Positions 27,001 through 30,000 of a stretch of 64,000 nt of DNA are shown piece by piece. Source of the stretch: an uncultured Candidatus Binatia bacterium (lineage in GTDB: Bacteria; Desulfobacterota; Binatia; UBA9968; JAJDTQ01); the NCBI GenBank assembly GCA_965215605.1, contig OZ244070.1, positions 928,001 to 992,000 of the forward strand. The letters run 5' to 3'. Numbering within the stretch: position 1 is the stretch's first letter; each line of letters begins with the position of its first letter. The position numbers were made by a program.

Positions 27001-30000
27001 CAATCCAGACTGCTGTCATACATACTCACGGGTGACGCGCACTGGAACCGCGTTTCCCGGCACCCGCTTTCCGAAGGGCGGAAAGACGCCGTGCGGTCCC
27101 GACGGGAACCACGGACCGTCTAATCAGGGGAGTCGCGACGATCGAAACGGCTGATCCGAAGGGAGGTGCAGGATGTCGAACGGAGATAGACCGAACCCTT
27201 ACTCGAAACTCCGTGCCGTGGCCGTGCTTTGGGGAGTGGCTGCGCTGGCCGCGCCCATGGTCCTGGCAGCCGATCCCAAACCCACGGCCGAGTGGGGCAA
27301 GCGCGGGGAATTGGTGGAGCCCAATTCGGAGATGGCGGTGGCATACCTCGACGGCAAGATCTACGTCGTGGGCGGCTACCCGTCCACCCGGAAGAGCGTC
27401 GACACGGTGCAGGTCTACGACGTCAAGACCGACAAGTGGAGTCTCACGACGCCCTACCCCACCACCATCAACCACGCCTCCGCCGTCGCCCTCGACGGAC
27501 GGCTCTACGTCATCGGCGGTCAGACCAATGCCGGCGGACGGAGGGAGAAATCCCGCTACGTCAACGCGGTCCACGCCTACGATCCCAAGACCCGAAAGTG
27601 GACGGCCCGGGCGCCGATGCCCACCGCCCGTAGCGCCATGGCCCATGACGTCATCGACGGCAAGCTTTACGTCGCCGGCGGGCGTCCTCCGCGGGGCCAC
27701 GACTTCGCCGTCTACGACCCCAAGGCGGACAAGTGGACCACGCTGCCGGACTTGCCCACCCAGCGCAACCATATTGCCGCGGCCGCCATCGACGGCAAGC
27801 TCTACGTCGCCGGGGGACGGTTCGGGGGCGGCTTCCGTAGCGAGATCACTCCGGCCCTCGAGGTCTACGATCCCAAGACCAACCAGTGGACGGCGCGGCG
27901 GCCCATGCCGGAAGCCCGCGGCGGACTCAACGGTATCGCCGTCAACGGCTGCTTCCATACCTTCGGCGGCGAACACCCCAGCGCGGGCCCCAGCGGCGTG
28001 TTTCCTCACCACGAAGTCTACAATCCCAAGACCGACACCTGGACGCGTTTCCCGGACATGCCCATTCCGGTCCACGGGGTCACCGGGCTGGTCTACCTGG
28101 ACGGTTGGATTCACCTGCCGGGCGGCGGCATCCGGCGGGGCGGCAGCAGCGGCACCACGCACCACCAGGTGGTGCGGACCGATATGCAATGCCGGTGAAC
28201 GGCGGCGCCCGCGACCCGTCGGCCGGTAGCGCAAGGATCGCCGGCGGGGTTCGGCTCCATCGAACTCTTCCATGAACGAGCCGGCGTGGCAGACGCGGGT
28301 CCCCACCGCCGGCAAGGCCGCCCTTCGTTTCCTCGCCGGCCTCGGCACCCTGTCCGTGCTCCCGGAGATGGCATGGGGCCACGCCATCGTCCAACGCTAC
28401 GAGCTGCCGGTGCCACTCTGGTACTATCTCGCGGGCGCCGGCCTGGTGGTTGCCCTGACCTTCGTCCTGCTGGCAACCCTTCGCAAGGAGGCCGTTCCGG
28501 CCCCGCCCTGAAGCCTGGACATCTCCCGGACGTGGCCCGGGCGTCTCATCACCCATGAACGACTCGGGAGGGTGCTGGCCATCCTCTCCGTGGCCGTGTT
28601 CGTATTCCTGATCGCCGCCGGCCTGTCGGGCACACAGGAAGAGCCGCTGGCGAACATCCTGCCCGCTTTCGTGTGGGTGGTCTGGTGGGTCGGTTTCGGT
28701 TTCGTGTGCGCGCTGGCGGGAAATATCTGGCCGGCCGTCAACCCCTGGGCGGCGGTGCCGGCGCTGTTGCCCGCGGGCATTGGGGGCGCCGTACGGCCGG
28801 TCCCTTCATGGATGGGCGCGTGGCCGGCGGTACTGCTCTACCTGTGCTTCGCCTGGGCCGAGTTGGTGTGGCCGGACAACACCGCCCCCGCCAGCCTCGC
28901 CGGCGCCATCCTGGTCTACAGCGCGGTCACTTGGGCCGGCATGACAAGGTACGGCGTCGAACCGTGGCTCAAGTGCGGCGAGGCGTTCTCCATCGTCTTC
29001 GGCCTGTTCGGCCGTTTCGCTCCCCTGGCCCGGACGTCCGAGGGAAGGCTGCTGCTGCGCCACTACGGCTCCGGGCTGGCGGACGGCGGGAAGGTGCCGG
29101 TCTCCATGATGGTGCTGGTGGTGACGCTGCTCGCCACGGTGAGCTTCGACGGCTTTCTCCACACGCCGGTGTGGGCGCGGTGGTATTCCGCGGCCTCGCA
29201 CGGACTGTACGATCTCGGCTGGACCCATGTTCTGGGCAACACCGGCGCGCGCACCTTGGTCTTCACCACCGGGCTCCTGCTGGCGCCGCTCTGCTTCGTG
29301 GCCCTGTTCCTGGCGGCCTGCGGACTCACGGCGCACCTGGAGAGCCGCCCGGAAGACGGACGGCGCGGTGCGGTAGAAGTGGCGTCTTGCTACGTTCTTA
29401 CCCTCGTACCCATCGCCATTGCCTACCACCTGGCCCACTACCTGCTGCTGTTGATGGTCGAGGGACAACTCCTCTACGGGCACATCTCGGACCCATTCGG
29501 TGTGGGCTGGGACCTCTTCGGCACGGCCGGCGTAACGCCGGACCCGACCGTGGTCGACGCCCGGTTCCTGTGGCTGTTCTCGCTCTTCGTCATCGTGGCC
29601 GGCCATGTCATCGCCGTGTGGCTTGCCCATCGGGCGGCGCACCGCGGCCAAGCCGGCAGACCGCCGGTTGCGCCGCAACTCCCCATGCTTGTTCTCATGG
29701 TCGGCTACACCGTCTTCAGCCTGTGGATCATCGGCCAGCCCATCGTCGAAATCTGAGAAAGCAAAAGGGGGCCTCTCTCTCCGAGAGACCCCCTTGCCGT
29801 GTCTGTACCGTATGCCCGGTCAGGCCCCCGGCTCAGCCGTGCTCGACGGCCGTGGCCTCGCCCCCTTCGCTCTGAACGGGCACCTTGCGTCCCACCGCCT
29901 CGGCGGGCAGCGGCACCCGGACCTCGGCCACGCCGTTCTTGTACCGGGCCTCGATCTTTCCGGCGTCGATGCCGCTGGGCAGCCTCACCGCGCGCTCGAA

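Follow-up and report, generated by a model that had tools for sequence, protein, structure and literature searches.

Bacterial selenoproteins are mostly found by the alignment of UGA with Cys, by a redox motif and by a good SECIS; at the locus described here, in an uncultured Candidatus Binatia bacterium, the first two are absent and the third is marginal. A bacterial SECIS is expected to have an apical loop with G(U), separated from the UGA by about 16-37 nt. With genes that carry such an in-ORF SECIS, for example the UGSC-family gene at C1:3130995 (9-bp stem, GUG triloop), the gene under study shares a conserved UGA in a frame that continues, a hairpin with a G-U loop about 20 nt downstream, and a full selA/selB/selC/selD set in the genome. 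It differs from them by the lack of homologs with Cys and of a redox motif, and by a hairpin with a shorter stem and a longer loop than any of the 14 bona fide SECIS of this genome. A likeness of another kind concerns the insect SPS1-UGA gene, in which a conserved UGA without SECIS is subject to readthrough and was twice replaced by Arg (PMC4561486), the inserted residue being given as unknown (Mariotti et al. 2015, PMC4561486). Both cases combine strong conservation across the UGA with replacement by Arg in some lineages. However, in the part of PMC4561486 on which this comparison draws, the insects with SPS1-UGA lack the Sec machinery and selenoproteins, which excludes Sec, whereas the Binatia genome has both; the insect UGA stands at an ancestral Sec/Cys active site, whereas the Binatia UGA lies in a non-conserved loop; and the insect gene is eukaryotic and possesses a large readthrough structure. 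Non-Sec decoding of UGA in bacteria can be performed by a tRNA-Trp with a 4-bp anticodon stem (PMC13092985), but the tRNA-Trp of the present genome has a 5-bp stem and TGA is its main stop. As to published selenoproteins, the text portions of PMC13188914 and PMC13326102 that were consulted contain no mention of transmembrane or Binat selenoproteins, and that of PMC13188914 makes none of arginine or of non-Cys sites. The word 'membrane' occurs twice in these two texts, for other proteins.

The in-frame TGA is located at positions 28509-28511 of the window, i.e., the whole stretch of 64,000 nt that was analyzed (C1:956509-956511). According to the first-pass annotation, it is codon 80 of a 494-codon gene, and sequence and frame (ATG at 28272 to 29756) agree with this. 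Under translation table 11, the single frame falls apart into a 79-aa ORF (28272-28511) and a 394-aa ORF (GTG, 28572-29756). The features of the locus are the following:

27173..28198, forward strand: upstream gene, coding for a secreted Kelch-repeat beta-propeller (Kelch_1, E 6.5e-53), 73 nt from the recoded ORF
28272..29756, forward strand: whole recoded ORF, from ATG at 28272 to TGA at 29754-29756, 494 codons plus terminal TGA, coding for a polytopic membrane protein
28272..28379, forward strand: codons 1-36, signal-peptide-like N-terminus ending in AWG (residues 1-32 of low confidence in the AF2 model)
28380..28382, forward strand: His37, directly after AWG (H37 in 82 of 82 aligned sequences, consensus AxAHA)
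28509..28511, forward strand: in-frame TGA, codon 80, with CCG CCC (Pro-Pro) before it and A after it
28512..28547, forward strand: codons 81-92 (SLDISRTWPGRL), the translated stretch directly 3' of the UGA, under purifying selection and modelled with pLDDT 97
28525..28541, forward strand: candidate minimal SECIS, 5-bp stem CCCGG/CCGGG with loop ACGUGGC
28548..28571, forward strand: codons 93-100, variable linker ending in GGGAGG (28566-28571), which adjoins codon 101
28572..28574, forward strand: GTG, codon 101, the start chosen by gene callers for the 394-aa downstream ORF
29754..29756, forward strand: terminal stop, likewise TGA, end of the frame

The Kelch-repeat gene is likely an operon partner of the recoded ORF, and the sole promoter-like site found (26997-27026) lies upstream of it. 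The N-terminus formed by codons 1-36 may be cleaved off as a signal peptide. H37, encoded 5' of the UGA, does not vary across the family, so that both halves of the protein are needed. A +1 frameshift at CCC-UGA was considered too and is out, as the conserved downstream frame is the zero frame.

The TGA is real, old and conserved. Among 27 congeneric genomes, 16 orthologs cover codon 80, of which 13 contain TGA (G001, G005, G007, G008, G014, G016, G017, G021, G022, G024, G025, G026, and G027) and three contain CGA (G002, G006, and G011); the ortholog of G015 comprises residues 141-494 only and was therefore outside this count. An earlier tally of 12 out of 15 in 26 genomes, with CGA in the other three, gave the same picture, and only its numbers have changed. 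All three close metagenome relatives (contigs L147, L148, and L151; 79-88% identity) carry the TGA, as had been reported, and in a second study the contigs of three runs represent a strain that is approximately 98% identical, with the TGA unchanged. The copy on contig C2 mentioned in the first-pass annotation does have the TGA, but it does not stand as an independent paralog, as it is 1 nt different from the G021 gene and its bin has 5.7% contamination. The CGA clade is nested inside the TGA lineages (support 0.95). Over the genus tree, one change of the TGA is observed, whereas a free codon should have changed about 6.1 times (P(<=1) = 0.016). The gene itself is dispensable within the genus, with short remnants only in five of the 27 congeners and no match in five, which counts against Sec.

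The codons that follow the TGA are under selection at the protein level. In the TGA clade, codons 81-92 underwent 16 synonymous and 12 non-synonymous changes (omega about 0.27, p = 0.00067 versus neutrality), and R86, R91, and L92 vary synonymously only; for R91, the codons CGT, CGC, and CGG that had been listed before were retrieved six, four, and four times, respectively, in the 14 distinct TGA sequences. No indels occur in codons 81-100 among the orthologs. Upstream of the TGA, omega amounts to 0.35 (codons 37-79); downstream, codons 93-100 are indistinguishable from neutral (omega about 0.74), and codons 101-494 of the TGA clade show an omega of 0.27 (p about 1e-91 versus neutrality). Furthermore, the L002/L015 lineage has no in-frame ATG, GTG or TTG across codons 81-124, i.e., for 44 codons after the TGA, and a downstream restart is unable to account for all lineages. 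The purifying selection after the TGA, the absence of a start over these 44 codons, and the single change where about six are expected indicate that the UGA is evidently decoded and kept by selection. The claim that this codon must be translated is hence well supported by the selection on codons 81-92, the zero indels, the start-less lineage, and the pLDDT of 97.

These data bear directly on two explanations that do without decoding, a split gene and a pseudogene, both of which are unlikely. In a split gene, a 79-aa piece (signal peptide, His37 and TM1) and a piece of approximately 394 aa, restarted at codon 101, would assemble in the membrane. Codon 101 is indeed ATG or GTG in 11 of the 14 distinct TGA orthologs, which upholds the earlier caveat of a possible start soon after the TGA, GGGAGG occurs just before it in most TGA genomes and not in the CGA genomes, the products proposed by gene callers measure 394-396 aa in 12 of 18 clusters, and codons 93-100 are nearly neutral. 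The caveat fails for the start-less L002/L015 lineage and for want of a Shine-Dalgarno sequence, which is missing from the -16..-4 region of every candidate start, whatever the ortholog; the GGGAGG has a spacing of 0 nt. Moreover, L003 and L018 lack a start at codon 101 (the codon reads ACG, ATA or GGG in the three remaining distinct TGA orthologs), five of the 18 product clusters begin further in, inside TM2, and two of the CGA genomes likewise have ATG as codon 101, which is thus simply a hydrophobic position. Finally, the supposed spacer is free of indels, and its codons 81-92, confidently modelled, are those under protein-level selection in the TGA clade; altogether, the chance that the gene is split is slim. 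A decaying gene or an assembly artefact, with the TGA as an inactivating mutation or a sequencing error, deserves still less credit. Remnants in five congeners, the failure to find the gene in five more, and a frame break near the N-terminus of the G016 ortholog would fit decay, but the omega of 0.27 over codons 101-494 does not, and an artefact is hard to reconcile with a TGA that recurs in 13 congeners, in three metagenome contigs, and in the run contigs of two studies.

The genome contains a tRNA-Sec (73 bits), SelA, SelB, and a UGA-containing SelD, the latter identified via NCBIfam, with selA, selB, and selD together. The Sec machinery is thus present as announced in the first-pass annotation, with SelA in addition. 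Within the genus, SelB was found in 28 of 28 genomes and tRNA-Sec in 27 of 28; as SelB is universal, the genus offers no natural knockout for comparison. At least 14 other recoded UGA genes occur in the genome, and every other recoded UGA found corresponds to a Cys-type motif, which argues against Sec at codon 80. Among 95 other candidate in-frame TGAs, none resembled generic readthrough and no domain extended through a non-Cys UGA. TGA serves as an ordinary stop here, being the commonest stop codon of the genome and ending 1014 of the 1808 long ORFs of contig C1. The single tRNA-Trp possesses a canonical 5-bp anticodon stem, and neither a variant tRNA-Trp nor a suppressor tRNA was found in the genome. 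A second 'tRNA-SeC(tca)' proposed by ARAGORN (C1:2086515-2086611) was rejected as a suppressor or allo-tRNA because of a mismatched acceptor stem, the lack of a variable arm, and a score below the Rfam cut-off. Similarly, when the genome was scanned with regular expressions for Sec motifs like those of FdhA and SelD, only wrong-frame noise was returned, and L315 ('CU' motif) was dropped from the bona fide SECIS set, as it has no Pfam match, is proline-rich, and looks like a wrong frame.

The candidate SECIS has a stem that begins 13 nt after the UGA and a loop G at +21, to be compared with +17 to +21 in 13 of the 14 bona fide SECIS of the genome, a position that speaks for Sec. The loops of all 14 have G followed by U or G, and the candidate hairpin does likewise. 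An alternative drawing gives it a GUG triloop together with a C-G pair and an A.C mismatch. In four orthologs (L002, L014, L016, and L017), the stem runs without interruption for 7 bp and carries a GUG triloop. At random coding positions, a hairpin that is equal or better is encountered in about 5% of the cases, and 0.4% reach the class with a 7-bp stem and GUG triloop. The loop G occupies the third position of the Thr87 codon: all 14 distinct TGA sequences carry G there, and all 3 CGA genomes carry C; of the comparable four-fold sites gene-wide, only 31 of 159 are invariant. One stem pair changed from G-C to A-U in two non-sister species. Nevertheless, the candidate, with five contiguous pairs and a 7-nt loop, is weaker than every one of the 14 bona fide SECIS, each of which has six pairs or more and a loop of 3-6 nt; this counts against Sec. 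Its folding z-score is -0.14, versus a median near -1.3 in the bona fide set, and dinucleotide shuffles of a 62-nt segment (z = -0.13) revealed no folding signal above shuffled sequence. Synonymous conservation in the stem codons was not significant (estimated p about 0.17), and the stem is weaker still in the TGA orthologs L004 and L006. Three caveats raised in the first-pass annotation proved justified: the same 5-bp stem occurs in the CGA genomes; covariation is weak, the value of the 7-pair helix being reached by 69 of 500 shuffles and therefore not significant; and Rfam is uninformative, with one tRNA only in the whole window at gathering thresholds and four noise matches, none to a SECIS family, at E <= 10 in the region 28450-28650. 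A larger hairpin, predicted as the MFE fold of +24..+57, was rejected, as its loop contains no G and lies at too great a distance from the UGA, and as it is not kept in the CGA clade.

Homologs of the protein are numerous (3766 at E <= 1e-3), mostly 460-530 aa long and uninterrupted. Those with 29-63% identity are single ORFs across the site, a range that includes the 40-63% for which this had been noted before. In the column of codon 80, the 81 aligned homologs have P (22), W (10), K (8), R (8), G (8), and others, but Cys in none of them, as had been remarked earlier; in the column that follows, a single homolog has Cys. The nearest relatives with a sense codon have R, L or K at the site (Arg in the lineage of P0159), and the one clade that reverted did so to Arg and not to Cys. 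These three observations argue against Sec, and no Cys or redox motif is present near codon 80; cysteines of the protein further along are C146, C192, C235, C341, C350, and C373. The AF2 model (pLDDT 91.3, pTM 0.89) has about 12 long helices. Residue 80 lies in a positively charged loop that directly follows TM1, differs among homologs in both length and sequence, and is probably cytoplasmic by the positive-inside rule. Given the variability and positive charge of this loop, Sec would not be a catalytic substitute for Cys there. As stated before, no known family or fold was matched: no family was found in Pfam or NCBIfam at E <= 0.1 and no match to the PDB with Foldseek at E <= 0.001, and the best Z of 6.1 with VIA-align wide is in the noise range for helical proteins and offers no credible fold match. 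The name 'Fenitrothion hydrolase (FedA) family protein' is an automatic ESM Atlas cluster name (feature similarity of 0.97 to P0002, a 56%-identical homolog). Clusters named after FedA, itself a gene-table entry in the part of PMC3417382 cited here, share the length class (482-521 aa) and have no Pfam family and no in-frame UGA; the name is no more than an automatic label. Among the neighbors of 22 distant loci, taken crudely as the longest ORF on each side, no recurrent partner was found; scattered matches beside these loci comprised a beta-propeller, Amidohydro_2, NnrS, and SCO1.

Based on the sequence data, Sec decoding of the UGA at codon 80 is the single most probable mechanism, with a probability of roughly 45%. 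Selenocysteine thus keeps the first place that the first-pass annotation had given it, although the weak SECIS, the variable non-Cys site, and the reversion to Arg weigh against it. It is favored by the complete Sec machinery and the presence of at least 14 further selenoprotein genes, and the analysis added two points on the same side, the selection that maintains the TGA and the joint loss of loop G and TGA. Two points on the opposite side are also new, the quantitative contrast with the SECIS elements of the same genome and the Cys-type setting of all its other recoded UGAs. According to this mechanism, decoding of the UGA would yield one full-length membrane protein of 494 residues, the decoder being selenocysteyl-tRNA(Sec) delivered by SelB. 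The latter would be recruited by the short GC hairpin, which presents GU in its loop about 20 nt past the UGA and would act as a minimal and weak SECIS within codons 85-90. Sec would then be the inserted residue and the hairpin the site bound by SelB. The TGA probably derives from a sense codon of the genus ancestor, CGA being the simplest candidate; it has since been kept by selection, with one reversion to CGA. Its benefit may consist of the selenol itself or of a throttling of expression that is tied to the selenium supply.

Somewhat less probable, as a serious possibility that falls well short of an even chance, is readthrough independent of a SECIS. RF2 would be inefficient at Pro-Pro-UGA-A, and a near-cognate tRNA (Trp, Arg or Cys) would insert an ordinary residue in a fraction of the ribosomes, resulting in a small amount of full-length protein plus a 79-residue N-terminal peptide, so that the UGA would be kept for a low or adjustable yield or for the short product. 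In Escherichia coli, a C-terminal Pro and a purine at +4 are reported to weaken termination; here, Pro-Pro precedes the stop in 11 of the 14 distinct TGA orthologs and A follows it in 14 of 14. Both occur equally in the CGA genomes, indicating that this context has not been shaped for readthrough. The site tolerates almost any residue, including those that near-cognate decoding would supply (of the 81 homologs, 10 have Trp and 8 have Arg), the interchange of UGA and CGA parallels that of insect SPS1-UGA, and a gene that is dispensable in several congeners could perhaps tolerate low expression. The hairpin, being no better than composition predicts and lacking significant covariation, fits readthrough as well, but readthrough leaves unexplained that the loop G never varies in the TGA genomes and is gone from those with CGA, and that four species have a 7-bp stem with GUG triloop. 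It is opposed, too, by the decoding apparatus: RF2 must work well in a genome where TGA ends 1014 of 1808 long ORFs, the tRNA-Trp has the normal 5-bp anticodon stem instead of the UGA-reading 4-bp form, the second 'tRNA-SeC(tca)' is a poor fold, and no similar case was present among the 95 other candidate in-frame TGAs.

Selenocysteine decoding, if it is the mechanism, would imply the existence of selenoproteins outside the Sec/Cys paradigm, in an unnamed polytopic membrane family with thousands of members, and counts of selenoproteomes would be underestimates. If Sec is not inserted, the gene would represent an unusual case of conserved and selected stop-codon readthrough in a bacterial chromosomal gene. 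A more doubtful idea, which encompasses either route, is that the UGA serves as a gate and not as a catalytic device, the output of full-length protein being set by UGA decoding, either via a deliberately weak SECIS tied to selenium or by SECIS-independent programmed readthrough conserved throughout a bacterial genus. Selection would then maintain a stop codon where the identity of the residue is indifferent. If true, this would be a use of UGA that is invisible to searches based on Sec/Cys pairs.

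The UGA at codon 80 of the membrane-protein gene is in all likelihood decoded and functionally maintained (probability about 0.85). Features discussed, in window coordinates:

28272 (ATG) to 29754-29756 (terminal TGA), + strand: recoded ORF, as a reading of the frame
28509-28511, + strand: internal TGA, codon 80, the sole in-frame TGA before the terminal one
28525-28541, + strand: candidate SECIS, CCCGG-ACGUGGC-CCGGG, beginning 13 nt past the UGA, with GU at +21/+22
29765-29795: GC-rich hairpin of 13 bp between the 494-codon gene and the Hsp20 gene, scored as a minus-strand terminator
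29833-30330, - strand: convergent Hsp20 gene, downstream neighbour of the 494-codon gene
34325-34591, - strand: CMD/AhpD-like gene of 88 codons, with an in-frame TGA (34472-34474) in a C-D-P-U motif

Table 11 translation divides the frame into a 79-aa ORF and a 394-aa ORF from GTG 28572. TGA is an ordinary stop codon in the source genome (a bin of 4.06 Mb, 66% G+C, 97% complete, 5.7% contamination). Long ORFs of contig C1, which carries the window (n = 1808), end in TGA 1014 times, in TAG 603 times and in TAA 191 times, and the terminal stop is TGA for both the 494-codon gene and the secreted Kelch propeller gene upstream of it on the same strand. The hairpin at 29765-29795 probably serves as terminator of both the 494-codon gene and the Hsp20 gene. 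The surroundings (20469-26920 and 30522-31499) are rich in genes for TctA/TctB/TctC tripartite transporters and Amidohydro_2 proteins; Amidohydro_2 also lies beside family members in two of 22 distant loci, across which no constant neighbour gene of the family was found.

The protein family is large (3766 matches at E ≤ 1e-3 in a library of 1.84 billion proteins) and occurs in Pseudomonadota, Methylomirabilota/Rokubacteria, Nitrospinota and others. As the first-pass annotation had stated, neither a Pfam or NCBIfam model nor a solved-structure match was found for it; look-alike Atlas clusters are named 'fenitrothion hydrolase family protein', an automatic label only. Residues H37, P48, W135, P158, D293, P380, I381, H389, W434, H445, P471, M476 and L484 are invariant, and H453 is nearly so in the family alignment. 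His37 comes directly after an AxA-like motif, and a putative cleaved signal peptide exposing an N-terminal His would, with a membrane-embedded His/Asp cluster, hint at a metal site.

A parsimony count of codon changes among the 14 distinct TGA sequences gave 16 synonymous and 12 non-synonymous ones in codons 81-92 (omega about 0.27; p = 0.00067 versus neutrality); omega was 0.27 for codons 101-494, 0.35 for codons 37-79 and 0.74 for codons 93-100, the last without significant departure from neutrality. Variation is purely synonymous at R86, R91 and L92, and the invariance already claimed for R91 extends to all 14 sequences (CGT in six, CGC in four, CGG in four). No indels occur in codons 81-100 of the orthologs. 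An AlphaFold2 model from 82 sequences (the query and 81 of the 150 best matches, being single long-stretch matches) reached a pLDDT of 97 for residues 81-90 and of 91.3 overall (pTM 0.89). Two cistrons, with a restart downstream of the UGA, might make use of codon 101, where 11 of 14 orthologs have ATG or GTG (the others ACG, ATA or GGG). Such a split is improbable: no in-frame ATG, GTG or TTG lies between codons 80 and 93 in any ortholog, and no in-frame start is present in codons 81-124 of loci L002/L015. No Shine-Dalgarno motif occurs at -16 to -4 of the candidate starts, and the GGGAGG present in most TGA genomes stands immediately before codon 101 with no spacer. For five of 18 product clusters the gene caller starts inside TM2. 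A downstream restart does not account for all lineages, given the selection on codons 81-92, the starts missing from L002/L015 and the lack of a Shine-Dalgarno motif. In addition, His37, upstream of the UGA, is invariant in 82 of 82 aligned sequences, so that both halves of the protein are needed.

The ortholog search covered 27 congeneric genomes and another 33 from the same order. The TGA is found in 13 of the 16 congeners covering the site, similar to the 12 of 15 annotated before, and codon 80 is CGA in the other three (G002, G006 and G011). As claimed for close metagenome relatives, it also occurs in three metagenome contigs (79-88% identity). Sense codons in relatives are CTG at 63% identity, AAG at 60% and CGA at 57%, and Arg stands at the site in two further database proteins (81% and 64% identity). 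The G015 ortholog spans residues 141-494 only, outside the site. The gene is lost repeatedly within the genus: five of the 27 congeners hold short remnants only (G003, G004, G009, G012 and G019; loci L021, L022, L023, L026 and L030), such as a piece covering residues 428-494, or the three scraps left in G004; a further five gave no ortholog match, so that the gene is dispensable in part of the genus. In the G016 ortholog (L007; G016:C54:2119-3619), the frame that matches residues 1-60 is not the one that matches residues 46-494; the break, near codon 50-60, may reflect either misassembly or genuine damage, and the TGA is nonetheless present. The copy on contig C2 (9510-10934) carries the TGA as annotated, but is probably not an independent paralog. 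Contig C2, including its tRNA-Val/CMD region, is syntenic with the corresponding part of C1, and given the single base separating its gene from that of G021 and the bin contamination, it probably derives from a second, G021-like organism and not from a duplication.

A maximum-likelihood tree of 18 sequences, rooted with G040 and omitting L015 as a duplicate of L002, nests the CGA clade among TGA lineages as sister to G024 (support 0.95), with the TGA-bearing G005 basal; one TGA gain and one TGA>CGA reversal is the most parsimonious history. On the genus tree of 17 tips, four-fold sites of the gene average 2.27 changes each, from which about 6.1 changes to sense codons would be expected at a free codon; one was seen (P(≤1) = 0.016). 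This speaks against a nonsense mutation that is merely tolerated and points to a TGA kept by selection; gene decay or an assembly artefact is very improbable. A strain from a second study (contigs from three runs) shows 18-32 differences across the gene (about 98% identity) and none within 28440-28626 (187 nt with TGA and hairpin), where about four are expected, which is no more than suggestive.

Of the Sec machinery, tRNA-Sec (73 bits), selB and selD, as reported earlier, were recovered along with selA, the three sel genes adjoining at C1:1984272-1988572 (contig positions), with a UGA within selD. SelB is present in 28 of 28 genus genomes and tRNA-Sec above cut-off in 27 of 28; the machinery therefore does not distinguish TGA from CGA genomes. 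A composition-filtered recoding screen yielded 97 in-frame TGAs with coding-like flanks, and 95 of these (leaving aside the 494-codon gene and its C2 copy) were searched against Pfam. The TGA fell inside a Pfam domain in a deiodinase/AhpC-like protein, UGSC, two AhpC/redoxins, a rhodanese, two OsmC proteins, a DUF3179 protein (motif W-U-P-L-C) and a CMD protein with its C2 copy; three GRDB matches stop one residue short of the TGA, and one further protein is weakly GRDB-like. At least 14 selenoprotein genes, SelD included, are predicted in the source genome. Recoded genes outside the window lie at C1 positions 67834, 369716, 685644, 1130828, 1207580, 1889299, 1985168, 2912580, 3130995, 3281381, 3387162, 3429882 and 3534145. 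Bona fide SECIS elements (n = 14) have 6-9 contiguous pairs and loops of 3-6 nt that contain, and almost all begin with, G then U or G; in all but SelD (+34) the loop start lies at +17 to +21. The CMD/AhpD-like gene, which adjoins tRNA-Val and is also copied on C2, has a CMD match spanning the TGA (E 1.3e-6) and a hairpin of 6 bp whose GGAC loop lies at +18, and is probably an ordinary CxxU selenoprotein.

For the UGA of the membrane protein, Sec insertion through a weak SECIS is the leading reading, held tentatively and at slightly below even odds. In loci L002, L014, L016 and L017 the stem runs to 7 uninterrupted pairs capped by a GUG triloop; among 4000 random coding positions, just 0.4% attain this class. 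The sole loop base not constrained by the protein sequence is the third one of the Thr87 codon: all 14 distinct TGA sequences have G there, and the three CGA genomes all have C (of 159 comparable four-fold sites only 31 are invariant). In two species that are not sisters, one stem pair has switched from G-C to A-U. The source-genome element (5 pairs, 7-nt loop) matches none of the 14 bona fide elements in stem or loop size, is equalled or bettered at about 5% of random coding positions, and is weaker still in L004 and L006. Its 40-nt stretch shows no folding advantage over shuffles (z = -0.14; bona fide set +0.10 to -3.49, mostly below -0.8), with z = -0.13 for dinucleotide shuffles of 62 nt, and Rfam scans of the whole window and the TGA region did not find any SECIS family. 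Earlier reservations about a short (5 bp) hairpin, retained in CGA genomes, and weak covariation proved justified (69 of 500 shuffles equal the covariation, which is not significant). Likewise, Cys is absent from the site in all 81 homologs, one having it in the adjacent column; the residue-80 column (P 22, W 10, K 8, R 8, G 8, Y 5, A 4, others) tolerates almost any residue in the family. The loop around residue 80 varies in length and sequence, no redox motif occurs at the UGA site, and the other recoded UGAs of the genome all lie within Cys-type motifs. Thus, of the first-pass claim, translation of the UGA stands on codon selection and missing restarts, whereas Sec as its most likely product is weakened by the hairpin, the lack of Cys and the single reversal, which went to Arg.

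SECIS-independent readthrough is a serious but less probable possibility. The Pro-Pro-UGA-A context is conserved, and in E. coli contexts of this type are reported to weaken termination; Pro-Pro and the following A are, however, equally present around CGA. Neither the 95 candidate TGAs nor stop usage gives any sign of general UGA leakiness, and the single tRNA-Trp(CCA) has a normal 5-bp anticodon stem, unlike the 4-bp form shown to read UGA in bacteria (PMC13092985). A second ARAGORN 'tRNA-SeC(tca)' (C1:2086515-2086611) was rejected as UGA decoder for its poor fold and mismatched stems; it looks spurious, as do two tRNAs called as of undetermined type with mismatched stems (C1:1073754-1073848 and C1:3287976-3288061). 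The closest published parallel is insect SPS1-UGA, in which a conserved UGA also alternates with Arg and is read through without Sec (PMC4561486). The remaining probability falls to explanations beyond Sec, readthrough, split gene and decay or artefact. Whether read as Sec or by SECIS-independent readthrough, the case would fall outside the usual Sec/Cys pattern.
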